Assembly: GCA_964597545.1 (NCBI GenBank)
Contig: CAZQXN010000001.1
Span: forward strand, 133,655 to 197,654
DNA: 64,000 bases
Source: an uncultured Planctomycetia bacterium
GTDB taxonomy: Bacteria > Omnitrophota > Gorgyraeia > 1-14-0-20-64-10
Reading direction: 5' to 3'
Below are positions 14,085 to 64,000 of the stretch, piece by piece. The number at the start of each line of letters is the position of its first letter. Position 1 is the first letter of the stretch. Position numbers and translations under genes: made by a program. The notes beneath the pieces were generated by a model that was given only the letters and a program-made list of their open reading frames with translations, did not search any database and was not told where the DNA came from.

Positions 14085-14119
14085 GCCAGTTACGTTAATG
14101 CGTAGCTGGCCTTTGTTTT
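14085..14119 (+). terminator. Rho-independent terminator
   Basis: GGCCAGTTACG-TTAATG-CGTAGCTGGCC, an 11-bp stem with one G-U pair, followed by TTTGTTTT. Confidence 0.55.
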
Positions 14120-14307: not shown

Positions 14308-14372
14308 TTTCCGGCCATCCGATTCGGCCCAGACAAAATCAGCCAGAAACGTGCTAAAATCACCCTGCAGGA
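14308..14372. repeat. Intergenic repeat family, copy B (truncated), supplying the promoter of the MNT/HEPN pair
   Basis: CATCCGATTCGGCCCAGACAAAATCAGCCAGAAACGTGCTAAAATCACC aligns to the left half of copies A and C. The extended -10 TGcTAAAAT lies at 14352..14360, followed by SD GGAG at 14370 and ATG at 14381. Confidence 0.55.
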
Positions 14373-14380
14373 GAAAAAGA

Positions 14381-15086: not shown

Positions 15087-15143
15087 CGCCTAACGCAAAT
15101 CCCCTGAAGCTTTCCCCCTAGCTTCCTGGCCTCTTCCGATACA

Positions 15144-15236
15144 GCCCAAATCCTAAACTCCCCCAGAAACGTGTTAAAATCCCCTTCTGCGGGGCCCCAA
15201 GGAGTTCGAAAGTCGTCCCGTCGACCCCCGTTCCTC
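15144..15236. repeat. Intergenic repeat family, copy C (~90 bp) with extended -10 TGtTAAAAT
   Basis: Aligns to copy A along its whole length. It sits downstream of the HEPN gene, so copies B and C bracket the TA pair. Confidence 0.6.
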
Positions 15237-15387
15237 AATGGACACAACGAACTGTTACGAATGGCGTTATCGCGACAATTCTCTCTTCTCCTGAAGGGGC
15301 ACAACTAGGCATCAGCCTTGCATTGAATCTCAGGGGTTGTTCGAAAGCGCTGCGGGGGTGCTTTGGGGGTGGGGCAAAGGAGGTTTG

Positions 15388-17268
15388 TTACGATTCTGCT
15401 GTGGCGGCTGCGGTAGCCGGCTGGCCGTCACCTCCGTTAGGGACCGGTTCGGCCGGACGGGGTTGTTCAGTCCAGTCTAAGGCCTGCACGGTCTTAAAGA
15501 GGATCCCGCCACAGATCAAACAGACAATGCCAGCTCCGATGGCCTCCTTGTGGAAGCCCAAGAAGAACCACTGCAATCCCATCATGACCGAGTAAACCGT
15601 CCCGATCCCCGTCAGCCAGCAAACGATGTTGTTCCACCCAACGCGCTGCGGCTTCAACTCCGGCCACCGGCTTTTACACTCTTTGGCAATCGGGCCCCAC
15701 CAGCCGGGTGGCCTGACCCGCCTGTAGAAGCTGATGAGCACCTCCTGATCCGTCGGCTTAGAGAGGAGAGTTACCGTTACCCAGACGATGGTACAGAGAA
15801 TAATGGTGAGGACCACTTGAACGGCATACCACTCCCCTGTCTTGATCTGAGGCACCATAAGCAGCAGATTGGAGATGATGAAGCTTGAAATCAAGGCGGA
15901 CAGCTCCGACTTTGCGCTGATCCGCCACCAGTACCACCTCAGAAGCGGCACCAGCACGCCCCCGGCCATCATGGCGGTCAGGAAGAGCCACGCCCGGTAT
16001 ACAGAGCTGAGTTTCCATGCCCCGTAGGCGCCCAAGAGCACAACCAGAACCGACACGACCCGCGAGATAACGACGTAATGCCCTTCTGATTTTTTCCGGA
16101 CCACAAAGCGCTTGTACAGGTCGTTGACGATGTAGGAAGCGCCCCAGTTGATGTGTGTGGCCACGGTGGACATGAAGGCCGCCAGCATGGCCGCAACCAT
16201 GAGGCCTTTTAAGCCAATCGGCATGAACATCACCATCATCCGGGGATATGCCATCTCTGGATCGGCAAGTCGAGGCAGATAGATGAGCGACGCCAGCCCC
16301 ACGATGACCCATGGAACAGCCCGGATGGCATAGTTCCAGATGTTGTACCACAACAGCGCTCCCACCGCGTGACGGCCGTTGCGGCAGGAGAGCAGCCGCT
16401 GCGCCAAGAAGCCACTGCCGTCGGCCCCACCCCACCAGTTCACCATCAGGAAGGTCATGAAGGTGAAGATGGCCAGGTTCGAAGCCTCTAGGTTCGGAGC
16501 AAAGCGTAGGAGCTGACTGGGGTCTGCCACGGGGCTGGGCAGATCCGGCTGCCCATGGAGGGCCTGCGCCGCTGCTACGGCCTTGGTGGCCAGCGCAGTG
16601 GGTCCACCGACGTGGGCCAGGACAATCCCGGCCAGCGCCACCACCCCGATCATCGCCACAATAAACTGCATCAGGTCCGTGTACATGACCCCCCAGAGAC
16701 CAGACAGAGTGGTGTAGACAGCAGTCAGCCCCACCAGGATGGCGATGGCGGTCAGCTTCGGCCAGCCGAAGACCTCAGTACAGATCTTCTGCATCCCAAG
16801 AAAGACCCAGGCCAGCGTCACCGTATTGGCTATCAGAGATCGGAAGGAGGCGTGGAACATCCGAAGCCCTTTAGCGGTCCGGCCGCCATAGCGAAGCTCT
16901 ACCAACTCGACATCGGTCAAGACGCGCGAACGCTGCCAGAGCTGAGCAAAGAAAAAGGCGGCCATCATCGTGCCAATGAGGCCGCTCCACCAGTACCAGT
17001 TGCCCTGAAAGCCCTGCGTGCGGACAATGCGCGCAATGGCCAGCGGCGTATCCGCCGCAAAGGAGGTCGCCACCATGGAGGTGCCGGCGAGGAACCAGTT
17101 GAGCTTGCGGCCGGCAACAAAGTACTCGGTGAGGCTCTGGGAAGCGCGCTTGGTAAAGGCCATCCCGATCCAGAGCGAGATGATCCCGTAACCAATGATG
17201 ACAGCCCAGTCGATCGCGCTTAAGGCAATGTAATCGTGATCCAAGACGATTGTCCTCCCGGAGGGCAT
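15388..17268 (-). CDS. Sodium:solute symporter family (SSF) transporter
   Basis: YFVAGRKLNWFLAGTSMVATSFAADTPLAIA is the SSF signature. 626 aa with 13 or more predicted TM segments. Confidence 0.7.
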   Translation of the reverse strand: MPSGRTIVLDHDYIALSAIDWAVIIGYGIISLWIGMAFTKRASQSLTEYFVAGRKLNWFLAGTSMVATSFAADTPLAIARIVRTQGFQGNWYWWSGLIGTMMAAFFFAQLWQRSRVLTDVELVELRYGGRTAKGLRMFHASFRSLIANTVTLAWVFLGMQKICTEVFGWPKLTAIAILVGLTAVYTTLSGLWGVMYTDLMQFIVAMIGVVALAGIVLAHVGGPTALATKAVAAAQALHGQPDLPSPVADPSQLLRFAPNLEASNLAIFTFMTFLMVNWWGGADGSGFLAQRLLSCRNGRHAVGALLWYNIWNYAIRAVPWVIVGLASLIYLPRLADPEMAYPRMMVMFMPIGLKGLMVAAMLAAFMSTVATHINWGASYIVNDLYKRFVVRKKSEGHYVVISRVVSVLVVLLGAYGAWKLSSVYRAWLFLTAMMAGGVLVPLLRWYWWRISAKSELSALISSFIISNLLLMVPQIKTGEWYAVQVVLTIILCTIVWVTVTLLSKPTDQEVLISFYRRVRPPGWWGPIAKECKSRWPELKPQRVGWNNIVCWLTGIGTVYSVMMGLQWFFLGFHKEAIGAGIVCLICGGILFKTVQALDWTEQPRPAEPVPNGGDGQPATAAATAES

Positions 17269-17339
17269 TTCGAAGGAAATTTTGTAACCCGTTTATTGTA
17301 AGTGATTTCTCCGATAATGCAACCATAAATCCGCTCTTT

Positions 17340-17375
17340 TACCAGGCATGCCCGGAGCAAAAGCAATGTTATAAT
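17340..17375 (+). promoter_or_regulatory. Putative sigma70 promoter with extended -10 (TGtTATAAT) for carB1
   Basis: TGTTATAAT at 17367..17375 lies ~65 nt upstream of the carB1 ATG. The -35 is weak. Confidence 0.4.
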
Positions 17376-17440
17376 AAAACCTGCTGGAAAGACCAATCCC
17401 TCGTTCGTCTTTGCAATCACCTGATAAGGAGAGCCAATTC

Positions 17441-20400
17441 ATGCCAAAACGCCAGGACATTAACAAGGTCATGATCATAGGTTCAGGCCCGATCGTCATC
17501 GGCCAAGCATGTGAGTTCGACTATTCCGGCACCCAGGCCTGCAAGGCGCTGCGATCGCTAGGCTATAAGATCGTCCTGGTGAATTCCAACCCGGCAACGA
17601 TCATGACCGATCCTGGAATGGCTGACGCGACGTATATCGAACCCCTCAACACCCGAGCGCTGGAAGAAGTGCTCGCGGCCGAACGACCGGATGGGCTGCT
17701 GCCGAATCTGGGAGGGCAAACGGGGTTGAATCTCTCCTTTGAGCTGGCCAAGTCCGGCATCCTAAAACAACACGGCACTCAGGTGATCGGCGTCAACATA
17801 GACGCCATTGAGCGGGGGGAGGACCGGACAGCCTTCAAGGAAACCATGAACCGCCTGGGCATCGAGATGCCCAAGAGCGAGGCTGTCAACAACGTGGAAG
17901 ACGCCGAGCGGGTGGCCGAGATCTTGGGGTATCCGGTGGTGGTCCGCCCGGCCTATACCATGGGTGGCACAGGCGGGGGACTCGCCTACAACACAGAGGA
18001 GCTTCGCACTGTAGCTTCCCGGGGTCTTTCTGCAAGCCGGGCCAACCAGGTATTGATTGAAGAGTCGGTGCTCGGATGGGAAGAGTTGGAGTTGGAGGTG
18101 GTCCGGGACAGCAAGAACCAGATGATCACCGTTTGCTTCATTGAAAATGTGGACGCCATGGGGGTGCACACCGGGGACTCCTACTGCACTGCCCCCATGC
18201 TGACGATTGATCCGGCCCTCCAGAAACGGCTTCAGAAGCACTCCTATGACATCGTAGAAGCCATCGGTGTCATCGGGGGCACCAACATCCAGTTTGCACA
18301 TGATCCCAAGACCGGGCGGGTGGTGGTGATTGAGATCAACCCGCGTACCTCCCGATCCTCAGCGCTGGCCTCCAAAGCAACTGGCTTTCCCATTGCCTTT
18401 GTCTCTTCGCTCCTGGCTGGGGGGCTGACCATGGATGAGATCCCCTATTGGCGGGACGGGACGCTCGAGAAGTACACCCCCTCGGGAGAGTATGTGGTGG
18501 TGAAGTTCGCCCGATGGGCCTTTGAGAAGTTCCGAGGGATCGAGGACAAACTGGGTACGCAGATGCGCGCCGTGGGCGAGGCCATGTCGATCGGCAAGAA
18601 TTATAAAGAGGCGCTTCAGAAATCAATCCGGTCGCTCGAGATCAAGCGCTATGGTTTAGGCTTTGCCAAGGATTTCCACCAGAAATCCCTGGACGAACTC
18701 TTCGCGCTGCTGGCCACCCCCACCAGTGAGCGGCAGTTTTTGATGTACGAGGCGCTGCGTAAGGGGGCCGATGTCCAAAAGCTCTATGCGCTCACAGCCA
18801 TTAAGCCGTGGTTCATTGAGCAGATGAAGGCCTTGGTCGAACTGGAGATGGAACTCATCAAGCACCGGGGGGCTTTGCCGCCGGATGATCTCCTCAAGCA
18901 GGCTAAGCAGGATGGTTTTGCCGACAAATACTTAGCACAGATCCTGAACACCAAGGAAGAGGAGATCCGCAACCGGCGCAAGGCCCTTGGGGTGGTAGAG
19001 GCCTGGGAACCGGTCCCGGTCAGCGGCGTGGAGAATGCCGCCTACTATTATTCCACCTACAATGCGCCGGACCGGGTAGCCGTGAGTAAACGAAAGAAGA
19101 TCATGGTCTTGGGCGGAGGCCCCAATAGGATCGGGCAGGGAATCGAGTTTGACTACTGCTGTGTCCATGCGGCTTTTTCCATCCGGGATGCCGGATACGA
19201 ATCGATCATGGTCAACTGCAACCCCGAGACCGTTTCAACCGACTATGACACCTCGGATAAGCTGTACTTTGAACCGCTGACAGTCGAGGATGTCTTAAGC
19301 ATCTATGAGAAGGAAAAACCCGAGGGGGTGATCGTGCAGTTCGGCGGACAAACGCCTCTCAACATTGCGCAGGAGTTGGCCGAGGCCGGGGTGAAGGTCC
19401 TGGGCACCTCCCCGGCTACGATTGATCTGGCCGAGGACAGGGACCGGTTCCGGCAAATGATGCGCAAGCTCAACATCCCGCAGCCGGAATCCGGGATGGC
19501 CAGCAACCTAGAGGAAGCCCTTGAAACTGCCAAGACCATCGGCTATCCGCTGATGGTGCGTCCTTCTTACGTGCTTGGCGGACGTGCCATGGAGGTGGTG
19601 GAAGACGAGGAGATGCTGAAAGAGTACGTTCAGGCAGCGGTGGATGTCTCGCCTGAGCGCCCGATCCTGATTGATCGCTTCTTAGAGAATGCCATCGAGG
19701 CCGAGGCGGACGCGCTGTCCGATGGGACCGATGCATTCGTTCCTGCGGTTATGGAGCATATTGAGTTGGCCGGTGTGCATTCGGGGGACTCGGCCTGCGT
19801 CATTCCGCCTGTCAGCATCCCGCAGCAGCATCTTGACATCATCCGCGACTACACCCGCAAGATCGCCATTGAACTTGGGGTGGTGGGGCTAATGAATATT
19901 CAGTACGCGATCGCCAACGATACCGTCTATGTTTTGGAGGCCAACCCTCGCGCCTCACGCACAGTTCCCTTGGTCTCCAAGGTGTGCAACGTGCCGATGG
20001 CCCGCCTGGCTACACAGTTGATACTCGGCCAGAAGCTCTCGGATTTGAAGCTCACCCACAGCAAGATTTTTCATTTCGGCGTCAAGGAGGCGGTCTTTCC
20101 CTTTAACATGTTCCCTGAAACAGATCCTCTGCTCGGACCGGAGATGCGCTCGACCGGAGAGGTGCTGGGAATGGCGGATTCTTTTGGCTTGGCGTTCTTT
20201 AAAGCCCAGGAAGCCACCCAGCTGATACTCCCACTCAAAGGAGCGGTGCTCTTTACGATCGCCGAAAAGAACAAACCGCAGGTGGTGAAGTCGGCTAGGA
20301 TATTTTCTGAGTTGGGATTCTCCATCCGGGCAACCGAGGGAACACAGCAATTTCTGACAAAGCATGGCATTGCGTCAGAGCTGATTCTAAAGATCGGCCA

Positions 20401-52243: not shown

Positions 52244-55200
52244 ATGGGGAAATCTTTCACCAGAATCTTTACCCTTTTGCTGGCGCTAAGCCTTGCCCTG
52301 CCAAGTCCTGCTTGGGCCCTGCGCAGTCAAGAACCCATAGAGACTACTGCAGCCACTGGGCTCGAAGAGGCCCTCTCCGGCCGGAAGGAAGGGGAAGCGC
52401 ACGTTGATGGCCACCTCATAGCAAGGCGCTTCGCCGAGCTGCTCAGGGAGGGGCGGACCAACCCAGCAATTCACTCTGGCGCGCCCTCCTCAAAACCGCT
52501 TCAGCGAGACGACATTACGCGAACCGACGCCAGAGAGGTGGTTTGGGAGTTGAGCGAAAAGGCGCTTAAGGGTGCGCTCAACGAACTGTGGGAGCGAGTG
52601 CTGCGGCACTCCGCTTATTGGAGACAGTTCCGCAAAGAGATCGATGTGGGCGCGCTCGGTCCAAAATATATAGAGCAGGGAATCGTCGATCACCTGTTCT
52701 CCATCTTAAGACACCCATTGGCCAATGCCGTTGATGCCTTGGTGCGAGCGTCCTATCCGGTTTTCGAGGATGCCGAGATTGCCGTCCTATGGTCTGTGCG
52801 GGGGCAGGAAATCCGGATTCAGATTTTGGATACAGGCTCTGGAATCGCCCCGGATGCCCTTGGTGTGCTGGGTCAAGAACTCATCGAAAACGACAAGGCG
52901 GACGAACTGGGGTCTTTTGGGCGGCAGGGGCGCGGGGCGTTCATTGCTGCGCGCTTGGCTGCAGCAGAAAATTGGCAGCTCAGTTTCGCCAACCGCGATG
53001 GCACAGGGGGCGCTGTCGTATCGCTGATTATCCCCCTCACCCCCACCCTCTCCGGCCAGGAGGAAACTTGGGAATTAAAAATCCAAGCCGGTTATACCGA
53101 TGCTCAAGTGACCGTTTTAGGCGTGGGCTTTATCGGCAGCCGAATCATGCAGCGTCTTTTGGGCTCCTACGGAGCGCTGGTCCGGACGGTCAAGGGAACC
53201 ACCACGAAAGCTTCTGAAAATCTCGCCACTCGGTTCTCCGATTTCCCCGCCTACCCGAAGCTGGCTCCAATCCAAGGAGATCACCGCAATGCCGAAAGCG
53301 TTCGCCGGTTCATTGGGGACTCCAAAGTCATCCTAGATACTGCCGGTCTTGCTTGGCAACACAAATCCGGGGGCAAGCCCGCCACCTTGGAAGAGGAGCT
53401 GCTCCAGAATGCAGCCAGCGCGGCGCTGATCGGACAACTGCTGGGTTCCTATCAGCGCCTCGTCTGGACCTCCAGCAACGCGGCCGATTACATGTTGGCT
53501 CGATTGCGCACTCATGAACAAGCTGTGCTCCTGAAAGAAATCGACGAGCGCGCCCGGCGCTACGTTCAATTCTCCAAGGGCCTTCCCTCTCAAGAAGCGT
53601 GGGGTGATTTCGTCCGACAGGATTTAGCTGAGTTTCAACCGCAAACTTTTGAAAAAGGCCCTAATCAAGCGGCAGCGGTCTTTGCAAAGGCATTCAGCTA
53701 TCCTTACTCCAAGCGGCTGGGGGAGCGAATATTAGAAATTGTATCGGAGGATCCAGAGAAAGACATCTGGGTGCTCAGGATCTCAGATGTATACGGCCCA
53801 GGCCAAGGTTTAGGGAAGGAGTTCTGGCATCCGGAGCGCGAGCGGCGGAAAGCAGCCAGGCGTCCACAATGGTTCATGGCGATTTTTGAAGCGATTCGCA
53901 ACGGGCAATTTGAGCCCTGGAAAACGGGGCAGGATTTCTTTCAAAGCAAGAACGAGCAGACCATCTACAACGACTTTGTGGCCCCTGTTTATATTGATGA
54001 TGTCGTGGAGATGATCCTGCGCGCCTCTGTGTTGGAAAAAGATTCGGACACTCCAGGTTCCGCAGTCCTCCAACTAAGCGCCCCGTGGATGACCAATCAG
54101 GCGATGGCCGAAACTATTGCCCAACAGGTCGGAATCGATCTGAACATTGCTGTGGGGGATCCGATCCTTCGACAGCAGCCGCTGGCAGCAAATTCGGGCT
54201 TGGCCCTTTTGGGCATGCAGGGAGAGCTTACCTCTTTTGAGGATGGGGTGGCCCGCCATTTGGACTGGTGGCGCCAGCCTCAGGTCCCCGCCGGCCAGGA
54301 GGAGAAACGAGCGCTGGCTCGGCATCTGAGGGATTGGGTAATCCCTCGGCTGCGGGCTCAGCTCCAGGCGGAGGAACAGATCGGTGTCGGCCGTCTGCGC
54401 AGGACGATCGGCGAGATTCAAAGCGACCAACCCTTTATCCAGGGAGGGGTGGCCTATGTGCCTGCTCGCCAAGGCCGATTGATTGTCCTTGGGGATCTCC
54501 ACGGAGATCTGGTCATGTTTGAGAAGATCCTTGACCAAGTGGGGTACGACCCCGAGATCAATCCAACGCTTCCGCCCGAACTTCAAGCGCACCTGGTGAT
54601 GGCTGGGGACCTTGCGGAGGGGGGTAGGCAGAACATCAAGCTGGCCAATCGGCTGGGGGAAATCAAGCTGAAGGATCCGAATCACGTCATCTTCGCAGGG
54701 GGCAACCACGACCAGGAATTGGTTCTGTGGGATTCACCGATCATCTCGAAGTATCCTCATTTCACCTTCTTGTCCAAAGAGCTGGCTGACCTGTTGGGGC
54801 CGGAGGAGGGAATGTCGATCTACGGGGATTGGAATGGTCTTGGGCGCGCACTTCCGGTCCTGATCGCTTTCCCCAACGGGATCGTCGTTGTGCATGGAGG
54901 GGGGCCCTCTCTGGCAAATCCTCCGCCACCTGGGCTTCCAGAGCAATTCCGCACCACCTTCAGCCCCGAAGCGGGCCTGTTGGGCATTGAGAATCCCATC
55001 ATCCAGGACCAGATGTCGTTTAACTTCCTGTGGGGATCCCACCTGGCTCGTTCCATGCCTGAGGTTGATGAGGTGATCGCGCTCAGCTCTAGAACCAGCG
55101 AGCGGGGAATGCACCCCGGCTTCTGGATCTCGCGGAACAGCCATTTTGGGTTCCTGGATTCGATTGGGGGGAAGGTTTTGGTTCGGGGACACGACTCCTG

Positions 55201-58200
55201 GGCCCCTCACGATCAAGTGTTCTACGATGGGACCGTCTTAACGCTTCAGTCCACCGATTATCGCTCACCAGACCACGCCTTCCAGAGGGATCGTCAACTG
55301 ATCGGCCGCTACGCTGAGTTCGATTTAAGCCAGACCTATGACCGGATTGATCCTGAGGGGGTAGTCAAGTATCTGTCCTGGGCCTCCGGCCTGGAGGAGG
55401 ATATTGCGGCCGAGGCGGCCGCTCTTCAAGAAGAGGGTCGGCCATTCAAGTTGGACCTGCATTGGCACGGCGTCGATCCGGATGGAAGATATCAAAAGGA
55501 CGGCAATGTCTCTCTTGTCAGCATTGGGTTCGACAGAGGGCGAGCGGATGTGCGGGGTGCCGCGCAACATGTGCAGCAAGCGCTCAGGCAGGCCACGGAT
55601 CATCCAGATGTGCGCATCGTAGCCGGCGGCAGCGAGAACTATGTTGCTGTCCTGCTGCCGCGGAAGCCTTGGGGGATGGAACGTGTTGCGCGCGAAGAGC
55701 TTCCGGGTGACCTCTCAGAGTGGCTCACTGTCATTGTGGGCGATTCCCTGGGCCTGGACTTTCTCTCTCTGGAACAGCAAGAGCGGTTCCCCACAGCATC
55801 CCTCCAGATATTGGTTCAGGGAAAGGAGGCCGTCTTGCCGCCTCACGCTGAAGAGGTCGTTCTCGCCAAGAAGGGCGGCGACGGTGTGGATGCCCTGCTG
55901 ACAGATCTGCTTCGGGTAATCGAGCGGGGCGGGCAGTACCAGGAGGTGGAATCCTTTGGAGAGCAACTGCCAGGGGACTTCCAGGATAAAGCCCTTAATC
56001 CTAAAAGATTGCATCTTATCTTTGATGTCGACAGCACGTTGATGGCCTCACTGGACACGTTTGATGCGCAGCAGCACGGAAAGCAGGGGCAGGAATTTAA
56101 GGGGGAGCGGCTGGAGAATATCGCCCGTCTGGCGGAGCGCGGCGTCTTCTTCAGGTTTGGAAGCGGCAAGGCCTTAGAGGAGGTCTCCGGTGACCGAGCC
56201 GTTCCTGACTGGGATCGTCTGCTGATCCCAGTTGTAAAGGCTTTCATGGATCGCAGGATCCCTGTGCAGCAAGTGGGATACGACGGCGTTTCCGGACAGC
56301 AAAAGGTGCGGGTGCGACCCGGAACAGAAGAACTGCGCTTTAGCCGAAGAGAGCTTCCGATCAGCCCGGATCGTCAGGTTTTTACGAATCAAGAGGTGAT
56401 ACGGCTCTTCCGCTTAGGCCTCCAGGCGGTCCAAGCCAATGCCAAGCCGACTCAACCGGGAGCCGACGCCGCCGGTCAGGAGGAGATAGCACAGGTTGCA
56501 GTAGAGGCTAGAATTTTAGCAATGGATCTAGGCGGAACTAACCTTCGGATCGGTTTGGTCAATAAGCGGACAGGAGAACTGTTTCCTGGAACGTTGCGCG
56601 CGCATCCCCTCGAATTCCTTCCGGGCACATCGCATGCCTCTGGTCGGAATGCCGAGGTGATCCTCCATCAGATTCTAACAGCTGCTCAAGCCTTATTGTC
56701 AGATATAGGGTTGGATTCTTTCGCTGAGATTGGAGGTGTCGCAGTGAGTATTGCCGGCAGCCTGAGGGAAGGGGAGGGGGTTGTTCGTTTTCAAGCAAAC
56801 CTCCCCTTTTCAGGACAGAATCTTGCTGCGCTCCTATCGCACCGGTTTAATGTTCCTCCGCAAGCCATTGTTCTTTCAAATGACGTAAGGGCTGGACTTC
56901 GAGCTGAGATGCACTATGGCGCGGGTCAAGGGCGCCGGGCCGGCTCGGTCGGATATTTCTCGGTGGGAACCTCCGCCAATGGGGCTTTTTTATCCGATAA
57001 GGGAGAAATAGTTAAGTTAGACTCAATTGATTTGATCAGATCGTGGATCAGGGAAGTCTCCATGCGTGCCGGAGGAATGCACCTACCACATCGGGCAGTA
57101 GAACAGGGAATGCCCTCAGCCACTGTTGGGACAACACAACAGGTTTGGGAGCAGGCGCAGGCGAGCCATGAAACTGCCAAAAAACTTATTCGGAAAGCAG
57201 CTGAGTCGATAGGAGAGGCTCTCGTCAAGATTACGGAGGCCGTAACAAAAGAGCAGGAGTTTCTTTGGATCCTCGGTGGCGGTGTGGTTGAAGGAATGGG
57301 TGAGCCGTTTGTTGAACAAATTCGGGCTTCAGCCGATCAGGAGCTCCATGAATCCCGTCGTGGACAAAGAATTACCATTTGTCTCTCTCCGTTGGATGGC
57401 CGAGAACGAGGGCTTCGTGGTGCAGCTTTGAGCGTTGCCGCCGGGCTGGAGGAGCAGGTTTCCCAGCGGGATGCGGCCGATATTAATCTGCTTTTCCAGC
57501 ATCTGGCCAACCCGGTAGATCAGCGGCAGATGCCCGAAACGTTCGATGCGGTCGTGGTCCTTGGTAATCCGAATCCTCAGCAAAATGGGGCGGCGGCGGC
57601 CGAAGCGATCCATCAGTTTAAACCAAGCTTCGTTGTGATAACAGGCACAGCCGAAGAAACACCTCAGTTTAAGAACGTGCTGTCCCAGCACGGCATTAAG
57701 GATCTCATCGAAGATGCAGCTGCGAGGCATACGGGGGACAATGCTCGAAACAGCGCCCGACTGCTGAAACCCAAAGGGCTTCCCGATTCCCCGAACATTC
57801 TTCTGGTCTCTGACCCACTGGCGGCAACCATCGCTCTGCGATTTTTCGAGCTGCAGTTTGCAGATGAATGGGGAGGGCCGGCAAATTTCTACAGCTACAC
57901 AGCCTCGTTGCCTAGCGTAACACCGGGAACGAACCGTAGCGAATTGGGAATGCAAGTGCAAGCGGGGATCAATATTTTTAGGAGCCTTAACGACTATGCT
58001 GGCACGTTCATTTCGGATCACGAAGCAGATCGGGATCCTCAAGTGGCCGCAGCGGTGCAGCGGCTTCGTGACCAAAACTATACCGCCGGCCAGGAGGAAA
58101 GCGCACTAGCGCAGGCTTTGTCCGACCCTGAGGTGCAAGCGGGCCTGGAGGACAAGGGCTGGGCCCAAACGAAAGCGCTGGGGCCAACTGTCTTTGTTGG

Positions 58201-58597
58201 GGACCCAACCCAGCTGAGAGCGCCAATCGGGTGGCTCTTTCTGCACGCAGGACTCAATAGACCAAAGGGGCTCTCTCCCAATACGCCGGTGGTTCGGATG
58301 CGCGCGGACAGCGTCCCGGAAATGCTTGTCTTTTATGATGAGCAGAAGCTCTCCGGAAGGGATGTGTCGCTGGTCAACATGACTCTGGTTACCCCGGAGG
58401 AGGTCTGGGCCTCTTTGCCGGTTACCGATGACCCGCATGCAGTGATCGGGGCCTTGAGCGGGGCTGAGCCGAATGCCGCGGAGACCAAACTACTTGCGGT
58501 TATCTCTCGCCGGGTGGGACCGATTTTTAGCTGGAAAACCACCCGCTATACCGCCCAAGACGGGCGGACCTACCTCGTCATCCAAATCCAGGTGTAA
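52244..58597 (+). CDS. Giant (2117 aa) signal-peptide multi-domain protein: GHKL-ATPase-like / SDR epimerase / PPP-family metallophosphatase / ROK sugar kinase / DUF218 / novel conserved C-terminal domain
   Basis: Signal peptide MGKSFTRIFTLLLALSLALPSPAWA. GHKL boxes: LANAVDAL, ILDTGSGI, GSFGRQGRG. SDR: VLGVGFIGSRI, YPYSK. PPP phosphatase: LGDLHGD, AGDLAEGG, GGNHD, VVHGGG, VRGHD. ROK: ILAMDLGGTNLRIGLV, NDVRAGLRAE. DUF218: AVVVLGNPNP...HTGDNARNSARLL...ILLVSDPLAATIA. C-terminal ~155 aa are shared with ORF 60980..62608. Confidence 0.6.
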   Translation: MGKSFTRIFTLLLALSLALPSPAWALRSQEPIETTAATGLEEALSGRKEGEAHVDGHLIARRFAELLREGRTNPAIHSGAPSSKPLQRDDITRTDAREVVWELSEKALKGALNELWERVLRHSAYWRQFRKEIDVGALGPKYIEQGIVDHLFSILRHPLANAVDALVRASYPVFEDAEIAVLWSVRGQEIRIQILDTGSGIAPDALGVLGQELIENDKADELGSFGRQGRGAFIAARLAAAENWQLSFANRDGTGGAVVSLIIPLTPTLSGQEETWELKIQAGYTDAQVTVLGVGFIGSRIMQRLLGSYGALVRTVKGTTTKASENLATRFSDFPAYPKLAPIQGDHRNAESVRRFIGDSKVILDTAGLAWQHKSGGKPATLEEELLQNAASAALIGQLLGSYQRLVWTSSNAADYMLARLRTHEQAVLLKEIDERARRYVQFSKGLPSQEAWGDFVRQDLAEFQPQTFEKGPNQAAAVFAKAFSYPYSKRLGERILEIVSEDPEKDIWVLRISDVYGPGQGLGKEFWHPERERRKAARRPQWFMAIFEAIRNGQFEPWKTGQDFFQSKNEQTIYNDFVAPVYIDDVVEMILRASVLEKDSDTPGSAVLQLSAPWMTNQAMAETIAQQVGIDLNIAVGDPILRQQPLAANSGLALLGMQGELTSFEDGVARHLDWWRQPQVPAGQEEKRALARHLRDWVIPRLRAQLQAEEQIGVGRLRRTIGEIQSDQPFIQGGVAYVPARQGRLIVLGDLHGDLVMFEKILDQVGYDPEINPTLPPELQAHLVMAGDLAEGGRQNIKLANRLGEIKLKDPNHVIFAGGNHDQELVLWDSPIISKYPHFTFLSKELADLLGPEEGMSIYGDWNGLGRALPVLIAFPNGIVVVHGGGPSLANPPPPGLPEQFRTTFSPEAGLLGIENPIIQDQMSFNFLWGSHLARSMPEVDEVIALSSRTSERGMHPGFWISRNSHFGFLDSIGGKVLVRGHDSWAPHDQVFYDGTVLTLQSTDYRSPDHAFQRDRQLIGRYAEFDLSQTYDRIDPEGVVKYLSWASGLEEDIAAEAAALQEEGRPFKLDLHWHGVDPDGRYQKDGNVSLVSIGFDRGRADVRGAAQHVQQALRQATDHPDVRIVAGGSENYVAVLLPRKPWGMERVAREELPGDLSEWLTVIVGDSLGLDFLSLEQQERFPTASLQILVQGKEAVLPPHAEEVVLAKKGGDGVDALLTDLLRVIERGGQYQEVESFGEQLPGDFQDKALNPKRLHLIFDVDSTLMASLDTFDAQQHGKQGQEFKGERLENIARLAERGVFFRFGSGKALEEVSGDRAVPDWDRLLIPVVKAFMDRRIPVQQVGYDGVSGQQKVRVRPGTEELRFSRRELPISPDRQVFTNQEVIRLFRLGLQAVQANAKPTQPGADAAGQEEIAQVAVEARILAMDLGGTNLRIGLVNKRTGELFPGTLRAHPLEFLPGTSHASGRNAEVILHQILTAAQALLSDIGLDSFAEIGGVAVSIAGSLREGEGVVRFQANLPFSGQNLAALLSHRFNVPPQAIVLSNDVRAGLRAEMHYGAGQGRRAGSVGYFSVGTSANGAFLSDKGEIVKLDSIDLIRSWIREVSMRAGGMHLPHRAVEQGMPSATVGTTQQVWEQAQASHETAKKLIRKAAESIGEALVKITEAVTKEQEFLWILGGGVVEGMGEPFVEQIRASADQELHESRRGQRITICLSPLDGRERGLRGAALSVAAGLEEQVSQRDAADINLLFQHLANPVDQRQMPETFDAVVVLGNPNPQQNGAAAAEAIHQFKPSFVVITGTAEETPQFKNVLSQHGIKDLIEDAAARHTGDNARNSARLLKPKGLPDSPNILLVSDPLAATIALRFFELQFADEWGGPANFYSYTASLPSVTPGTNRSELGMQVQAGINIFRSLNDYAGTFISDHEADRDPQVAAAVQRLRDQNYTAGQEESALAQALSDPEVQAGLEDKGWAQTKALGPTVFVGDPTQLRAPIGWLFLHAGLNRPKGLSPNTPVVRMRADSVPEMLVFYDEQKLSGRDVSLVNMTLVTPEEVWASLPVTDDPHAVIGALSGAEPNAAETKLLAVISRRVGPIFSWKTTRYTAQDGRTYLVIQIQV

Positions 58598-58600
58598 AGA

Positions 58601-60709
58601 CTATACCGAGCCCCGGTAGGATTCTGCTGCCCGGCCAAAGAGATGGGTGGTCAGCTGGCAGGTGCACGCGAATACAAAGGTCGCAAAGAGATAGCTCTCT
58701 TCTGCCAACCGCCAGATGAGTTTCAGAGGGTTTAAGCGATCGAGCCGCCCCCTCCGGAGACTGGCTCCTGCCTCCTTCCAAAAGCGCTCAATAGGTTTGC
58801 GCGACCAGGTCAAAGAGGTGCTGAAGGGGTTGTGCTGCCGGATCCATAGCCAAAGGCGGGAAGGAACGCGCTGACTGCGGCGCACCATGTGCTGTGCGCA
58901 GGCCTTCCGGCGGCGGGCAAAGGCAACGGCCCGCTGATAGGCCCACTGAAGCTGGCGCTGGCGCAGCTGGCGCCATTGCAACACATCGGCGTGGCGCTTG
59001 CGGAGGTGCTCCACCACCAACCGCTCCACATCGCTGCGGGGGTGGGTCTGCAGCCAAAGCTCCTCGAGCTCAAAGAGTAGGTCTAACCAGCGCCTTGCGA
59101 AGGTCCGGCAATCCCTAAGGCGCCGCTTGAAATATTGCCAACGTCCTTCTATCGGCCAGCCCGGCCTGCGCTCAAGCCGGTGCCGAAGCTTAAAGAGGCC
59201 GTGGATCATGGGGTGACCCTGCTCGACCACAATGGCGTTCTTGTGCCAGAGGAGGTTGGCAAAAACCTTCCAGTAATTCTCAGCTGAAACCCGCCGGAGT
59301 ATCGCCTTCATGTTCTCCATGTCATAGAAAGAGACCCTGGCCTCGGCATAGGCCCCCCTCCATTCTTCTTGGGTCATCCGGGGGTGCTCAACGGTGGCAT
59401 GGCAGGTGTTATAACGGTTGAGGTCCGGATCCAGGGCTACCCCGCGGCGGATCAAGTCGGCATGGTCCTTGGAGCCGGGTAAGGGGGTCAGCATAAAGAA
59501 AGAGACCTGGTCGGGTGCCAGGGTGGTTTTTAGGGTCTCGATGTCCCGGCGCACCGACTCTCTGGTGTCGAACGGGAAACCGATGATGTAGGCCACGTGC
59601 GTGTTGATCCCTCCCGCACGGTAGGTGCGGATGGCCTCGCCAAACTTTTCGGTCCGATTCTGCCGCTTCTCGGCGGCCACGAGGTTGTCGGAGTTTAGGC
59701 TCTCCACCCCTAAGAAAACCTGGGTGCAGCCGGCCGCTTTGGCCTTCTCGATAAACCGGGGGGATTTGTACGACTGGGTATCCACCTGAATCATGAAGGA
59801 AAGTTTAATCCCCTCCTCCTTGTGCAGGCGGATCAAGGCATCAAAGATCGCCTCCCAGTGTCTGTTTCTGAAGAAGTTGTCATCTGAGAAGAAGTAATAA
59901 GAAATCTTGCGCCGGTGGTAATTGTCTCGAATCAGCTCCACTAATCGCTCCACCTCTCTGAATCGCATCTTGCGCCCCTGAACATTGATCACGGTGCAGA
60001 AGGAGCAGGCAAAGGGGCAACCCCGGCCGCAGTCTAGGGTGCCGAGATTGGGAGCTAAGAAGCGTTTTCTGTACCGCTCGCCCACCTTAGGCATGGGGGC
60101 GCTTTTTAAGTCGGGTGGGGAGCCCAAAAAGTTGTATACCTGCTGTCGCTTGCCCTCCAGCACATCCCGCAGGATACCCTCCCAGCGGCCCTCGATCTCG
60201 CCGGCAACCACCGTAACCCCGGCATCGATCAAGCGCTGGATCTCGGTTGGGATTTGAGGCAGCATGGCGATCGAACCACTCACATGGAAACCGCCGATTA
60301 AGACATCGACTCCGCCTGCGCGAAGCTGGAGCGCCAAGTCTGAGGCCCGGGCAAATTGGCATGACTGCACTCCAACCAAGCAAGTGACAACGTTGGTGTG
60401 TGGGTCGCGAGCGGCACGGAAGATCTTTTGGAGGCTAACCCGCTCCAGTGTCTCGTCGATCAGTGTGACCTTCCACTGGAGAGGCCCCAGGGCTTCTCTC
60501 TGGCGGACATCTTCGGTGAGGCCGTGCAGGCAGGCCAAGGTGTTGCTGGGCAGAAGTCCGCGCCAGTAACGGATGACATAGCCGTCATCGTCATACTGCG
60601 AGGGCTTGATCAGATAGATCGCCAGCCGTCGGATCTTGGGTTGGGTAAGTAGTAATGTCTTCATCTTAAAATCTGCTGTAACGAAATATCCCCGTGGGAG
60701 GGTAATCAT
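58601..60709 (-). CDS. B12-binding radical SAM protein (class B, DUF4070-type) with ~200-aa basic/aromatic C-terminal extension
   Basis: N-terminal B12-binding Rossmann-like region. Radical SAM core CGRGCPFACSFCTV (CxxxCxxC). C-terminal extension ends in a hydrophobic segment. Likely true start is MKTLLLTQP at 60664. Its stop lies 3 nt from the giant gene's stop (convergent). Confidence 0.65.
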   Translation of the reverse strand: MITLPRGYFVTADFKMKTLLLTQPKIRRLAIYLIKPSQYDDDGYVIRYWRGLLPSNTLACLHGLTEDVRQREALGPLQWKVTLIDETLERVSLQKIFRAARDPHTNVVTCLVGVQSCQFARASDLALQLRAGGVDVLIGGFHVSGSIAMLPQIPTEIQRLIDAGVTVVAGEIEGRWEGILRDVLEGKRQQVYNFLGSPPDLKSAPMPKVGERYRKRFLAPNLGTLDCGRGCPFACSFCTVINVQGRKMRFREVERLVELIRDNYHRRKISYYFFSDDNFFRNRHWEAIFDALIRLHKEEGIKLSFMIQVDTQSYKSPRFIEKAKAAGCTQVFLGVESLNSDNLVAAEKRQNRTEKFGEAIRTYRAGGINTHVAYIIGFPFDTRESVRRDIETLKTTLAPDQVSFFMLTPLPGSKDHADLIRRGVALDPDLNRYNTCHATVEHPRMTQEEWRGAYAEARVSFYDMENMKAILRRVSAENYWKVFANLLWHKNAIVVEQGHPMIHGLFKLRHRLERRPGWPIEGRWQYFKRRLRDCRTFARRWLDLLFELEELWLQTHPRSDVERLVVEHLRKRHADVLQWRQLRQRQLQWAYQRAVAFARRRKACAQHMVRRSQRVPSRLWLWIRQHNPFSTSLTWSRKPIERFWKEAGASLRRGRLDRLNPLKLIWRLAEESYLFATFVFACTCQLTTHLFGRAAESYRGSV

Positions 60710-60772
60710 CCCCCGGGGATCGCAGTAAGGCTATTGTAGCACCTTTGGGGCAAAAAGACTGTTTTTGGAGTG

Positions 60773-60850
60773 GTGTAGCTTCCTGGACGACTTTAGAACT
60801 TTCTGTAGGGGCCGGGAAGCATCCGGCAAGTTGGCCGAAATAACCCGCGC
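60773..60850. repeat. Direct repeat DR1 (~80 bp) upstream of the paralog gene
   Basis: GTAGCTTCCTGGACGACTTTAGAACTTTCTGTAGGGGCCGGGAAGCATCCGGCAAGTTGGCCGAAATAACCC is ~80% identical to DR2. Confidence 0.6.
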
Positions 60851-60979
60851 CTTATTGTGGCACTCCATACCCTATCGACCCGAGCGGACACCGACCCTGT
60901 TAGCCTTAATTGTAGTTAGCTCGTCCCCTTTCATTTTGCTCTTGGGTCAGCTATACTTATTGTATTAAGTCCCAATCCA

Positions 60980-62608
60980 ATGAAAATGCGTAGAACCGCT
61001 CTAAAGATCGTGATGGTTGTCCTGGTGGCCAAGCTTGTCCTGCCCAACCCTGCCTGGGGACTACGAGATTCCATCGAGGATGAAACCCCAGGTGGGTTGG
61101 CAGCTGCTTTTGGAATTACTGCCGCTGGGCTGGAGGAGAATCGGCCGCTGGCGATTAACCGAAAAGCTATTCCGGTTCGAACGGCCGCTTTCTCGTTCGA
61201 GAACCCGGCAGAAATACAGGCGGTTGACCAGAAGTTGGGTGAAGCGGCTAGGTTATTCTCAGAAATCGGGTGGTTTGACCGCCATCCGGAATCATTCCAG
61301 CACACCACCGAGATCTCTGCGCACGGAAAGCGTTCGGGCATTGGAGGGTTGGCTTCTTCTGATCGCCCAGGAGAGCTATGGGTTCGAACTGAAGGCCTTC
61401 CTGTTTTGGAAGTTGTGAATACGCTAGCCCATGAAGATCGGCACAATGCGATCTATGCCGGCGCGCGTTGGGCGCGGATTGTAGAACACGAGGGTGCGAT
61501 TCCGACTCGCTTCGATCACCGCTGGTGCCCGGATGTCAGGCCTTCGGCCAGAGACCTGCTGAACGAGCTGGATGCATACGTGTTTTCCCTCCCCATTTCT
61601 CTTCAGATATGGGAGGCGAAACTGCTACCTGAAACCCCTTTGGCGGTTGAGGAGCTTTTCATGCTGTTGTTCCGGGCCGAGGAGGCAATCCGGCTTCTCG
61701 AGGAAAGCCGAGAAAAGGTCCTGAATGAGGATGGGGCGACGTGGCTGGAAGAATTAAAACCTTTGTGGGCCAGGCGGAGAGAGGCGGTTGAAACCCGTTG
61801 GGATTGGGACTCCGTGATGGCCTCTCTTGCAGGCTCTCAGGAGGAAGCAGTTCGCGCGATTTGGTACTTCCATGTGGGGGAGCTCTGGAAGGCCCGCCCA
61901 AATGAACAAACAGCTTATGAAGCGCTGTTGATCCAAACGCTCGCCAAAGAACGCAACCCGGTTTTCCTGCAGGAGGAAGTAGGCAAACAGCTTTCCCTCC
62001 TGGAAATGCCGGTAAAATTGCAAGAGCTGGTTGAGGCGCGGTATCTTTCGCTGACAGACAAAGGCGTGGAGCATCTTTCCGCTGATGCGTCCCTCATCGA
62101 CCAGCTAAAGGATACCGCTGGACTGGAGGAGGTGGGGCAAATAGTGACATCTCCGGAGGTGCAAGCCGGTCTCAAAGCTGCTGGATGGGCTTCCCTTGGA
62201 GAGGGTCGTTACGTTGTGAATCCCGCTAGACTCCAAGGATCCATTGGGCGACTCACTCTACATGCAGGGCTTGAGGAGCCGGATGGAGTTCCAGAGAACG
62301 CGATGGTTCGCATGGAAGCTGGTTCAGCCTCGGAGATGATCGCTTTCTATCGGGAACATCAACTGGGGCGAAATGACGTCGTCTTGGTCAACATGAAGCT
62401 TGTAACCCCAACAGAGGTGCTTGCTTCACTCCCCCTCAGCACACCATTCGCTGTGCTCGGCTCTACCCCCCAAGAGCGTCTTGCCTTGGGGACTCTCCTG
62501 TTCCTTGCGGAACTTTCCCGTAACATCGGCCCTATCCTACACGCTGACATCCGACCTTTTACCGCAGAGGATGGTCGATCTTACGTTCTGGTTGATATTC
62601 AAGCGTAA
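60980..62608 (+). CDS. Secreted paralog (542 aa) sharing N-terminal LPxPAW[AG]LR motif and C-terminal ~155-aa domain with the giant protein; contains an HExxH motif
   Basis: Signal peptide MKMRRTALKIVMVVLVAKLVLPNPAWG. TLAHEDRHNAIYAG. C-terminus PEVQAGLKAAGW...LHAGLEEP...VRMEAGSASEMIAFY...VVLVNMKLVTPTEV...TAEDGRSYVLVDIQA aligns at ~45% identity with the giant protein C-terminus. Confidence 0.5.
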   Translation: MKMRRTALKIVMVVLVAKLVLPNPAWGLRDSIEDETPGGLAAAFGITAAGLEENRPLAINRKAIPVRTAAFSFENPAEIQAVDQKLGEAARLFSEIGWFDRHPESFQHTTEISAHGKRSGIGGLASSDRPGELWVRTEGLPVLEVVNTLAHEDRHNAIYAGARWARIVEHEGAIPTRFDHRWCPDVRPSARDLLNELDAYVFSLPISLQIWEAKLLPETPLAVEELFMLLFRAEEAIRLLEESREKVLNEDGATWLEELKPLWARRREAVETRWDWDSVMASLAGSQEEAVRAIWYFHVGELWKARPNEQTAYEALLIQTLAKERNPVFLQEEVGKQLSLLEMPVKLQELVEARYLSLTDKGVEHLSADASLIDQLKDTAGLEEVGQIVTSPEVQAGLKAAGWASLGEGRYVVNPARLQGSIGRLTLHAGLEEPDGVPENAMVRMEAGSASEMIAFYREHQLGRNDVVLVNMKLVTPTEVLASLPLSTPFAVLGSTPQERLALGTLLFLAELSRNIGPILHADIRPFTAEDGRSYVLVDIQA

Positions 62609-62642
62609 TCCTTTGCAGGAAAAACAGTTACAGGAAATTATG

Positions 62643-62720
62643 TAGCTTCCTGGACGACTTTAGAGCTTTTTGTAGGGGGCAAGAGGCTCGTAAGTTGGCT
62701 GAGATAGCCCTATGCTGATT
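62643..62720. repeat. Direct repeat DR2 (~80 bp) downstream of the paralog gene
   Basis: GTAGCTTCCTGGACGACTTTAGAGCTTTTTGTAGGGGGCAAGAGGCTCGTAAGTTGGCTGAGATAGCCC. Confidence 0.6.
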
Positions 62721-62782
62721 GTAGCAGATTGGGTACCATTTCCTACGGCGCCGGGTTCAAAGGTGCAGAGGAAGTGTCCCCA

Positions 62783-63949
62783 TCAGTCTTGTCGGAGTTT
62801 AGGGTTTTTTGAAATCGGGGTCGGTAACTTTAAAACGACCCAATAAGTCGATATGATAAACGTCACAATCGTTGCGACCTGAATCACCATCGCTCCTGCA
62901 GCTGACAAAACCCCAATCGACAAAGCTGAAAATGCGACGAGGAGGGAGAATTCGCTTGATTGTGCCAAGCGGACCGACAGCTCTTTAGACCATTGCGGCG
63001 ATTCTCCTGCTCTTCGAAATGCAAAACCAAATACGTAAGCTTTCAATGGCACTAGAATCGCGCCAAATATGATTGCTGACAGAAGAAGTCTGCGCTCAAG
63101 GAACAAATTCAATTCCGCCCCTACCGCGAAGAAAAAAAGAATCAGAAAGAACTCGCGTAATGGCTTGAGGTGTTCGGCAATGGCAAGTGCGACCGTACAG
63201 GAAGCGATCGATAATCCTGCGACAAAAGCGCCCATCTCATAGGAAAGGCCCAAATAATGAGCGGTTTCTGCCCACAACAAACACCAAGCTAATGTTGCAA
63301 GAAAAGCATACTCCTGAATCACAGCAAAGTTTTTCAGTAGCGGTCTCAAAACAAACTGTACACCTAAAAATGATAAGAAGCAGAGCAATGCAAACTTCCC
63401 TACAAGCATTCCGAATGTGGCTAAAACATACTCACTCTTTTCCCCAGCAATGAATAAGATGACAAGGATGGCCAACATGTCCTGAAAAAGCAGGATGCTC
63501 GTCATTGTTTCGCCCATCGGTTTATAGTGAAGCGTCTTCGTTGGAATCAACTTTAATCCAACGACCGTGCTTGAAAACATCATTGCTGCACCAGAAATCA
63601 ACGAGCTGTGTATATCAAATCCGAGCAATAAGAAAAAAAGGCAAGCTATTCCTCCGAACAGCAGTGATGTGCCAAGGGTAAGGAGCGAAGTCCTGCGGAA
63701 AAGCTTGATCAGCCTTCTTGGATCTAAGTTGAGGCCAATGAGAAAGAGTAGGAGTATTACACCGAAATGAGCTATTTGTTCAATGTGGTCGGTTCTGCGA
63801 ATTAAGCCAAGCCCGTTTGGTCCAAGGGCAATCCCGATTGCAATATAGGCTATAAGAATGGGCTGTTTTGCGTAGAGAAAGAATGTCCCTAGCAAAGCGG
63901 CCCCCACTACGATAGCGCTTAATTCGAATATAATGCTGTCAAGATTCAT
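62783..63949 (-). CDS. Monovalent cation:proton antiporter (CPA family, NhaP/KefB-like)
   Basis: GIALGPNGLGLI...FGVILLLFLIGLNLDP is the typical N-terminal TM pattern of Na+/H+ exchangers. 388 aa, ~11 TM. Confidence 0.65.
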   Translation of the reverse strand: MNLDSIIFELSAIVVGAALLGTFFLYAKQPILIAYIAIGIALGPNGLGLIRRTDHIEQIAHFGVILLLFLIGLNLDPRRLIKLFRRTSLLTLGTSLLFGGIACLFFLLLGFDIHSSLISGAAMMFSSTVVGLKLIPTKTLHYKPMGETMTSILLFQDMLAILVILFIAGEKSEYVLATFGMLVGKFALLCFLSFLGVQFVLRPLLKNFAVIQEYAFLATLAWCLLWAETAHYLGLSYEMGAFVAGLSIASCTVALAIAEHLKPLREFFLILFFFAVGAELNLFLERRLLLSAIIFGAILVPLKAYVFGFAFRRAGESPQWSKELSVRLAQSSEFSLLVAFSALSIGVLSAAGAMVIQVATIVTFIISTYWVVLKLPTPISKNPKLRQD

Positions 63950-64000
63950 TTGGTGTAAGGTGGTTGCTGTATCTTGCTACTTTCGACGGTGCTGTGTCGA

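Follow-up and report, generated by a model that had tools for sequence, protein, structure and literature searches.

What is the radical S-adenosylmethionine (SAM) gene that lies on the opposite strand between two related genes of an uncultured Omnitrophota bacterium, and does it have anything to do with them? We addressed this question for a stretch of 64,000 nucleotides of contig CAZQXN010000001.1 (hereafter the window), in which the initial annotation, made from the sequence alone, had recognised a B12-dependent class-B radical SAM enzyme with an extended C-terminus and had suggested that it acts on its neighbours. We conclude, with a probability of roughly 60%, that the gene is a genuine member of a widespread, uncharacterised radical SAM family with class-B architecture, an explanation which includes the lipid or tetrapyrrole chemistry proposed below. 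The gene and its parts, with the evidence by which each was delimited, are as follows.

58601..60709, minus strand: radical SAM gene including its stop codon, 702 aa when counted from the first ATG (list of open reading frames and translation).
60662..60664, minus strand: alternative start codon Met16 (687 aa), possibly the true start (start of an ortholog; poor conservation and low model confidence of the first residues).
60110..60631, minus strand: Rossmann-type B12-binding-like domain, about residues 27-200, with invariant GGFHVSG and AGExE motifs (hhalign, Foldseek).
59345..60064, minus strand: radical SAM core, about residues 216-455 (Pfam PF04055; alignments to AprD4 and BchE).
59996..60019, minus strand: CxxxCxxC cluster-binding motif, C231, C235 and C238 (translation; invariant in the homolog alignment).
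58604..59314, minus strand: family-specific C-terminal helical extension, residues 466-702, rich in Arg and Trp, with an LExEExWLxT motif (E547, E549, E550, W552, L553, T555) (conservation, codon statistics, substitution rates, structure model).
58607..58729, minus strand: terminal long helix, residues 661-701, with a conserved hydrophobic face, a candidate membrane anchor (DSSP on the model, hydropathy, substitution rates).

The minus-strand frame is the only long open reading frame (ORF) between the plus-strand genes at 52244..58597 and 60980..62608. The ORF list, the translation and a match of PF04055 (Radical_SAM) to residues 228-392 (E = 2e-19, 70.7 bits versus a gathering threshold of 29.5) confirm that a CxxxCxxC radical SAM gene runs antisense between the two genes, which had been described as cargo genes. 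Its cluster motif reads C231-PFA-C235-SF-C238 and is invariant across the 21 homologs of our alignment A1, in which identities reach down to 48%. The structure model, predicted by AlphaFold (AF2) from this 21-sequence alignment (mean predicted local distance difference test score (pLDDT) 82.9, predicted TM-score (pTM) 0.81), shows an alternating beta/alpha N-terminal domain at about residues 28-200, followed by a radical SAM barrel at about residues 220-445; it has the partial TIM-barrel fold and matches 76 radical SAM structures at E ≤ 1e-3 in Foldseek.

The ORF is translated and under purifying selection over its whole length. The codon log-odds are positive solely in the annotated frame, in every segment of the ORF, and a comparison with an ortholog on metagenome contig L001 (89% DNA identity, no indels) gave ratios of nonsynonymous to synonymous substitution rates (dN/dS) of 0.063, 0.098 and 0.137 for the N-terminal domain, the core and the extension, respectively, and of 0.048 for the last helix. 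The protein of this ortholog, P0001, has 687 aa, is 92% identical to the window protein and is encoded in identical form on three metagenome contigs (L001-L003). The true start of the window protein may likewise be Met16, since P0001 begins there and residues 1-22 are unconserved and were modelled with a pLDDT below 50.

The C-terminal part of the protein is a fixed, family-specific domain, which follows from homolog coverage, invariant residues, codon statistics, dN/dS and a search with the extension alone. The extension is kept in all of the 120 listed homologs, which have 48-92% identity; 119 of these proteins have 614-712 aa and 80-98% query coverage, the remaining one being a 521-aa fragment. 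Residues invariant in A1 after position 460 are E547, E549, E550, W552, L553, T555, E562, W579, R580, R637, F643, W644, G654 and F678, among others. The codon statistics of the extension are not random-like, with a GC content at third codon positions (GC3) of 0.74 as compared to 0.75 in the core and a coding signal in the annotated frame only. When used alone against 1.84 billion cluster representatives (E ≤ 1e-3), the extension matches 171 of them; it begins at about residue 390-485 in 23 matched proteins of 630-830 aa, and the remaining matches are shorter sequences. Past residue 447 the model is all-helical (helices 447-461, 464-473, 476-495, 523-555, 560-572, 576-581, 584-601, 618-626, 638-652 and 661-701), the pLDDT of the extension being mostly 80-90.

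Homology to canonical class-B enzymes stops at about residue 442-465 according to NCBIfam, the AprD4 alignment and hhalign. The extension does reach beyond typical DUF4070 radical SAM enzymes, as had been stated, and since class-B homology ends near residue 465, it measures about 240 aa and not 200. The description of its composition was right for Arg and Trp, which make up 15.8% and 5.3% of residues 456-702 (Trp elsewhere in the protein: 0.8-1.4%), but not for Gln, which is not enriched (5.3% versus 5.6% in the N-terminal part). The hydrophobic helix noted at its end is present as model helix 661-701, and in 18 of 21 homologs it contains the 19 consecutive residues with the highest hydropathy in the protein. 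No family of Pfam or NCBIfam matches the extension, and it is solely in this respect that the extension is unusual.

Family members were found in 398 species-representative genomes, mainly of the Omnitrophota and of the Acidobacteriota/Terriglobia, the acidobacterial hosts including Terriglobia, Bryobacteraceae and Solibacteraceae; further hosts belong to the Melainabacteria, the Bacteroidota (Ignavibacteriales), the Planctomycetota, the Tectomicrobia and other groups. The proteins have about 680 aa, and public records give them no annotation beyond ‘radical SAM protein’. Inteins or insertions, which had been suspected from tblastn matches of about 3.1 kb at several genome loci, were rejected, as the match runs on into a downstream paralogous radical SAM gene.

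A class-B architecture, i.e. a Rossmann-type domain preceding the radical SAM core, is supported by profile comparisons and by the predicted structure. With a probability of 99.8%, hhalign aligned residues 27-465 to a family of partner proteins of about 540 aa, described below, and the alignment takes in the whole N-terminal domain of the radical SAM protein; the C-terminal regions beyond it do not align, and the partner family scores on PF02310 (B12-binding) and PF13282 (DUF4070), whereas the window protein scores on neither. The 15 top Foldseek matches in the PDB (AprD4, TsrM, TokK, CysS, MgmA and OxsB) are all class-B-type structures. Likewise, the top NCBIfam matches are almost all B12-binding or class-B-type radical SAM families, namely PhpK (72.4 bits, cutoff 600), TIGR04013 (69 bits), BchE (62 bits, aligned over residues 225-462), HpnJ (57 bits), ApyD (55 bits), AprD4 (48 bits, cutoff 500) and TIGR04014 (43 bits). 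All 24 NCBIfam matches fall far short of their curated cutoffs (251-750), the families tested including BchE, HpnJ, HpnR, PhpK, BzaD, AprD4, MgmA, ApyD and the ladderane-type TIGR04072. DUF4070 was matched in none of the 21 family members even at E ≤ 1, and the alignment with the DUF4070-carrying family ends at residue 465. The protein is therefore not a DUF4070 radical SAM enzyme with an addition, and the comparison with such enzymes that had been made initially does not hold.

Among known enzymes, TsrM, TokK, CysS and MgmA (and the PhpK, BchE, HpnJ, HpnP and HpnR families) share the domain order, the fold and the position of CxxxCxxC at the start of the barrel with the window protein; the C-terminal domain of the latter does not superpose on TokK (root-mean-square deviation about 15 Å). 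The best solved-structure match is AprD4 (PDB 6fd2), the radical SAM 1,2-diol dehydratase of apramycin biosynthesis, which acts on a soluble aminoglycoside. It ranks first in the sequence search (E = 4.5e-12, residues 224-442) as well as in the fold comparison (Foldseek E = 2e-17, TM-score 0.68 on the target), and both proteins consist of a B12-like Rossmann domain followed by a radical SAM barrel. Their identity is 18%, and the AprD4 chains, with 454-457 residues, have no counterpart of residues 466-702.

What the family might act on was approached through the genes next to its members. ORFs were called in 90 loci, their 1236 products were clustered, and 78 non-redundant homolog loci were examined together with the window. 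The 48 immediate co-directional downstream neighbours include 18 radical SAM proteins (14 with DUF4070, 12 with PF02310) and 8 hotdog thioesterases, and the partner mentioned above, a paralog of about 540 aa with B12-binding, Radical_SAM and DUF4070 domains, lies immediately downstream and co-directional in 14 of the 78 loci. Upstream neighbours are diverse, with 4 tryptophanase-like proteins, 4 amine oxidases (protoporphyrinogen-oxidase-like), 3 radical SAM proteins, 2 ketoacyl synthases and 2 CobA/BtuR proteins. In one Omnitrophota clade, the gene order is protoporphyrinogen-oxidase-like gene, family member, B12/DUF4070 radical SAM gene, phosphatidylserine decarboxylase and CDP-alcohol phosphatidyltransferase. 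In locus L007, a B12-uptake system (btuFCD-like ABC system, TonB-dependent receptor) and CobA/BtuR are located directly upstream, before this order from the oxidase to the phosphatidyltransferase. As regards cobalamin use, B12-uptake and CobA genes upstream of relatives are only suggestive.

Among the closest relatives of the window protein, a clade with 59-62% identity, most loci (7 counted) carry radical SAM-SPASM genes of the AhbC/AhbD family that adjoin the family member or lie one to two genes away, often on both sides. These genes are NirJ1/AhbC-like (515-522 bits) or AhbD-like, two of them above the TIGR04053 cutoff (447-452 versus 395 bits). An identity of the flanking AhbD-like genes with Gms/Hbs was considered and rejected, because they align end to end with NirJ1/AhbC and TIGR04053 and are without the N-terminal extension of about 100 aa by which Gms is defined (10.1101/2023.10.20.563219). 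FabB, an NMO-family gene, NnrS, siroheme-type reductases, HemA, NrfAH, NosZ, hemerythrins and Crp/Rrf2 regulators are also found in the vicinity. Three loci (L004 6134-15322, L008 8001-12400 and L009 5781-10022) contain clusters of up to four radical SAM genes, which are NirJ1/AhbC-like, TIGR04053/AhbD-like, ThiH/HydG-like or encode a second B12-type radical SAM protein, and it is possible that these clusters form an anaerobic or nitric oxide-responsive cofactor or lipid module. FabF or FabB is located upstream of relatives in some loci, and a fatty-acid desaturase gene lies near the relative in L010. Two themes thus recur, fatty-acid and lipid genes on the one hand and tetrapyrrole genes (AhbC/D-like, protoporphyrinogen-oxidase-like, HemA, siroheme enzymes) on the other, neither of which is dominant.

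Judging from sequence features and gene context, our best guess is that the enzyme is membrane-associated and acts on a lipid or a tetrapyrrole. Its layout is that of a Rossmann domain homologous to cobalamin-binding domains, a CxxxCxxC barrel and an Arg/Trp-rich helical C-terminal domain of about 240 aa. SAM would be cleaved reductively at the [4Fe-4S] cluster of the enzyme to give a 5'-deoxyadenosyl radical, and this radical, probably with cobalamin as methyl carrier, would act on a small hydrophobic molecule associated with the membrane and functionalise one of its unactivated carbons, most likely by methylation. The C-terminal domain with its terminal hydrophobic helix may serve to locate the enzyme at the membrane interface and to form the pocket for the substrate, and in many genomes the enzyme probably works with a second, canonical B12/DUF4070 radical SAM enzyme. 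From the neighbourhoods of the relatives, we estimate the chances of the possible substrates at about 40% for a lipid or fatty-acyl chain, about 25% for a tetrapyrrole or heme intermediate and about 35% for another compound.

Several findings weigh against this interpretation. The B12-binding model PF02310 was undetected in the window protein and matched in one of the 21 members only (E = 0.15). AprD4 carries a B12-like domain but uses no cobalamin, which means that the fold alone does not imply cobalamin. Because the Pfam B12-binding domain is undetected and the top match AprD4 is cobalamin-free, cobalamin dependence and methyl transfer are unproven; of the initial designation as a B12-dependent class-B enzyme, the class-B architecture is upheld by hhalign, Foldseek and NCBIfam, whereas the term B12-dependent goes beyond what is visible in the sequence. 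Membrane anchoring is not established either, because the mean Kyte-Doolittle hydropathy of the terminal helix (1.3-2.2) is borderline for a transmembrane helix and several homologs carry charged residues there; this hydropathy better fits an interfacial or tail anchor than a transmembrane helix. The inference of the substrate is weak and divided between lipid and tetrapyrrole, because no neighbour family dominates: none exceeds about 18% of the 78 loci, and apart from the paralogous radical SAM protein none occurs in more than 11 of 79. Acidobacterial contexts consist of housekeeping genes (TilS, Hpt, FtsH, dNK) and are uninformative. Finally, no partner radical SAM gene and no lipid or heme gene lies near the radical SAM gene of the window, and a tblastn search of all 64 kb for a second B12 radical SAM gene, using three partner proteins, matched only the radical SAM gene itself.

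These points lead to the alternative that survives best, although we consider it rather unlikely, namely that the enzyme needs no cobalamin, its B12-like domain being degenerate like that of AprD4, and carries out a non-methylating radical reaction (dehydration, C-C coupling, cyclisation or oxidation) on a hydrophobic substrate. AprD4 is the best solved match by both sequence and fold, but the NCBIfam AprD4 model falls far short of its cutoff. PF02310 is undetected in 20 of 21 members, but the N-terminal domain aligns throughout with the PF02310-positive family and keeps a GG-x-H motif, which reads GGFHVSG here as opposed to GGPYNS in the partner, where the His is missing. Radical SAM enzymes that couple lipids or form rings, such as Tes, Mss and Grs, provide precedents for such reactions (PMC13459092). 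The B12-uptake and adenosyltransferase genes directly upstream in some loci argue in the opposite direction, although they possibly serve the downstream partner enzyme.

The class-B family explanation could also be taken further, to a point at which we would find it quite improbable: the family might be a membrane-bound cobalamin-dependent radical SAM enzyme that modifies membrane lipids without oxygen, for example by chain methylation of branched tetraether or diabolic-acid-type lipids, with the Arg/Trp-rich helical domain as a new lipid-access module. We know of no enzymes for chain methylation of such lipids. The concentration of the family in Acidobacteriota and anaerobic candidate phyla would be compatible with this proposal, as would the FabB/FabF, thioesterase and phospholipid genes adjoining relatives of the window protein. 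Known lipid-modifying radical SAM enzymes (Mss, Tes, GrsA/B, Gmm, HpnP/R) act anaerobically on hydrocarbon chains, and anaerobic lipid chemistry is rich in such enzymes (PMC13459092). Hydrophobic stretches close to the C-terminus have been described for Mss (PMC13159169), and homologs of Mss have been reported in Omnitrophota (PMC11868695; 10.1101/2023.10.20.563219). As published, membership in Mss is defined by homology to the enzyme of T. ethanolicus (WP_129545148.1) or T. maritima (Tmari_0825) at E ≤ 1e-50 with a length of at least 400 aa. No entry for Tes or GDGT-MAS is recognisable in the 50 listed Foldseek matches, and among the best 80 loci there is none from Thermotogota or Thermoanaerobacter. 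Mss is a shorter enzyme and not class-B, which would make an identity of the window protein with Mss unlikely.

The second part of our question concerns the flanking genes, which together with an intergenic element make up the context of the radical SAM gene.

52244..58597, plus strand: giant gene of a multi-enzyme protein of 2117 aa; signal-peptide-like N-terminus, domains HATPase_c, Epimerase, Metallophos, ROK and DUF218; convergent with the radical SAM gene.
60980..62608, plus strand: 542-aa paralog with the shared C-terminal domain; divergent from the radical SAM gene.
58025-58594 (giant gene) and 62075-62605 (542-aa gene), plus strand: shared C-terminal domain, recognised by mutual similarity.
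60774..60820, minus strand: conserved intergenic element upstream of the radical SAM gene, with a second copy at 62641-62687, after the 542-aa gene.

The two flanking proteins share their C-terminal 180 or so residues (45% identity, E = 1e-35) and have similar hydrophobic, signal-peptide-like N-termini (LALPSPAWALR and LVLPNPAWGLR). The stop codon of the giant gene is TAA at 58595-58597, and that of the radical SAM gene reads CTA on the plus strand at 58601-58603, so that the convergent stops are indeed 3 nt apart (58598-58600), as had been pointed out. A small GC-rich hairpin, TACCGGGGCTCGGTA, at window positions 58604-58618 directly abuts the radical SAM stop at this junction and could be a shared bidirectional terminator element inside the 3' ends of both genes; apart from this hairpin across the convergent stop codons, the scan for promoters and terminators yielded nothing informative.

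A search of 5.8 billion proteins gave no relative of the shared domain at E ≤ 1e-3, and nothing in Pfam or NCBIfam matches it; the domain appears to be restricted to this lineage. In a tblastn search across the fetched loci the domain matched solely L001-L003, and the window neighbours of the radical SAM gene belong to no recurrent neighbour cluster in the 78 loci and the window. L001 keeps the convergent arrangement with the 3-nt gap between the stops. Its giant gene (12068-19879) encodes 2603 aa, as compared to 2117 aa in the window, and the two match in patches only, one N-terminal segment being about 60% and the C-terminal domain 32% identical; both giant proteins terminate in ...IQIQ(V/A). 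Since the radical SAM DNA is 89% identical between the window and L001 but the C-terminal domain of the adjacent, fast-diverging giant protein only 32%, the two genes do not co-evolve, and the contrast between a conserved enzyme and adjacent genes that change fast and are confined to one lineage speaks against a dedicated pair of enzyme and substrate. The giant gene and its paralog are not conserved partners of the radical SAM gene, and the position of the latter between them looks like local gene shuffling in one lineage rather than function.

These observations bear on the suggestion of the initial annotation that the radical SAM protein is a modification enzyme for the shared terminal domain or for what the giant enzyme produces. 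We recast it as post-translational modification of the flanking secreted paralogs, either at the shared domain or at a junction motif, (A/S)G(L/Q)EE, and consider it very improbable. The motif, as (A/S)G(L/Q)E(E/D), occurs in the giant protein at residues 39, 271, 684, 1049, 1411, 1734, 1949 and 1967, where it marks enzyme-domain boundaries, and in the 542-aa paralog at residues 50, 381 and 430; it is likewise present in the L001 giant and absent from every other large protein of the fetched loci. It could be a linker, processing or modification site of a secreted, polyprotein-like multi-enzyme of the ‘beads-on-a-string’ type. The numbers of G[LQ]E[ED] copies (8 in the giant protein, 3 in the 542-aa protein and 10 in the L001 giant) exceed the 0.1-0.2 or so expected for a 2117-aa protein. 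However, this motif and the shared domain adjoin the radical SAM family only in the window and in L001-L003, i.e. in the same lineage, and no neighbour in all other fetched loci has either of them; thus, the co-location of the enzyme with a substrate gene is not conserved across lineages. The tight placement between the paralogs, with a stop junction that is kept at the locus of the 92% identical ortholog, would fit such a role, but the radical SAM gene is located on the strand opposite to both paralogs and hence is not co-transcribed with either, and its protein is far better conserved (92%) than the C-terminal domain of the giant. The domain is without relatives among 5.8 billion proteins while the radical SAM family spans several phyla with 45-62% identity. 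MgmA and Mmp10, which are class-B enzymes, methylate protein side chains, and ApyD-type enzymes modify precursors of ribosomally synthesised and post-translationally modified peptides; the similarity of the window protein to MgmA (Foldseek; TIGR04014, 43 bits) and ApyD (55 bits) is weak, and, given the signal-peptide-like N-termini of the paralogs, a cytoplasmic enzyme would need to act on them before export. Modification of the recurring motif in the secreted giants is less likely in our view than the proposal of a novel membrane-lipid chemistry. Weakest of all, and hardly credible, is the possibility, named in the initial annotation as what would refute its view, that the C-terminal 240 or so codons are a run-through of a GC-rich frame behind a radical SAM protein of about 460 aa: local GC is 58-63% and the composition is unusually rich in Arg and Trp, but the extension is alignable in all listed homologs with invariant residues in A1, has a dN/dS of 0.137, shows a frame-specific coding signal at the GC3 of the core and is predicted with confidence to fold into helices, and we rejected it on the basis of conservation, codon statistics and dN/dS.

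The intergenic element is about 50-65 nt long and has the core TCTAAAGTCGTCCAGGAAGCTACA in the sense of the gene. The window contains two exact 24-nt cores of the element, none being expected by chance, and related copies precede five consecutive genes of L001 (5191-5240, 6957-6997, 7675-7740, 8184-8245 and 9855-9890). A scan of 58000-64000 against Rfam gave one chance-level match only, and folding of the repeat (z-scores of -1.8 to +0.2) gave no support for a structured RNA; the element probably serves as a common promoter or operator, or as a site of recombination. Between two copies of the element, the window holds the 542-aa gene on the opposite strand, whereas L001, which is without this paralog, holds in the same slot (8276-9871) the gene of a 531-aa B12-binding radical SAM protein (best NCBIfam match BchE, 177 bits). 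The filling of the same slot by different genes suggests cassette exchange or replacement at the repeats between close relatives. At 1-2504 of L001, the gyrB gene contains an intein, Pfam Intein_splicing being matched between its GyrB domains. To the left of the giant gene, the window has housekeeping genes (carAB, pyrB, pyrC, a pyrR-like gene, an LpxA-like gene, RsmI and a Dph6-like ligase) that give no functional clue, and the gene to the right encodes a cation/proton antiporter.

Taken together, the analysis removes as unsupported a tempting link between the radical SAM enzyme and the giant Omnitrophota-type proteins, and it delimits a coherent family of proteins of about 680 aa, whose conserved C-terminal domain could become a family model. 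The family is one more orphan, ordinary-looking subfamily of the very large class-B radical SAM group and would cause a radical SAM specialist little surprise. The neighbourhood clues (paired B12/DUF4070 radical SAM, thioesterase, FabB/FabF, AhbC/D-like, NnrS, Nrf, NosZ) point to anaerobic lipid or tetrapyrrole chemistry, and if the proposed modification of membrane lipids were true, the family could bear on the enzymology behind bacterial membrane-lipid biomarkers.

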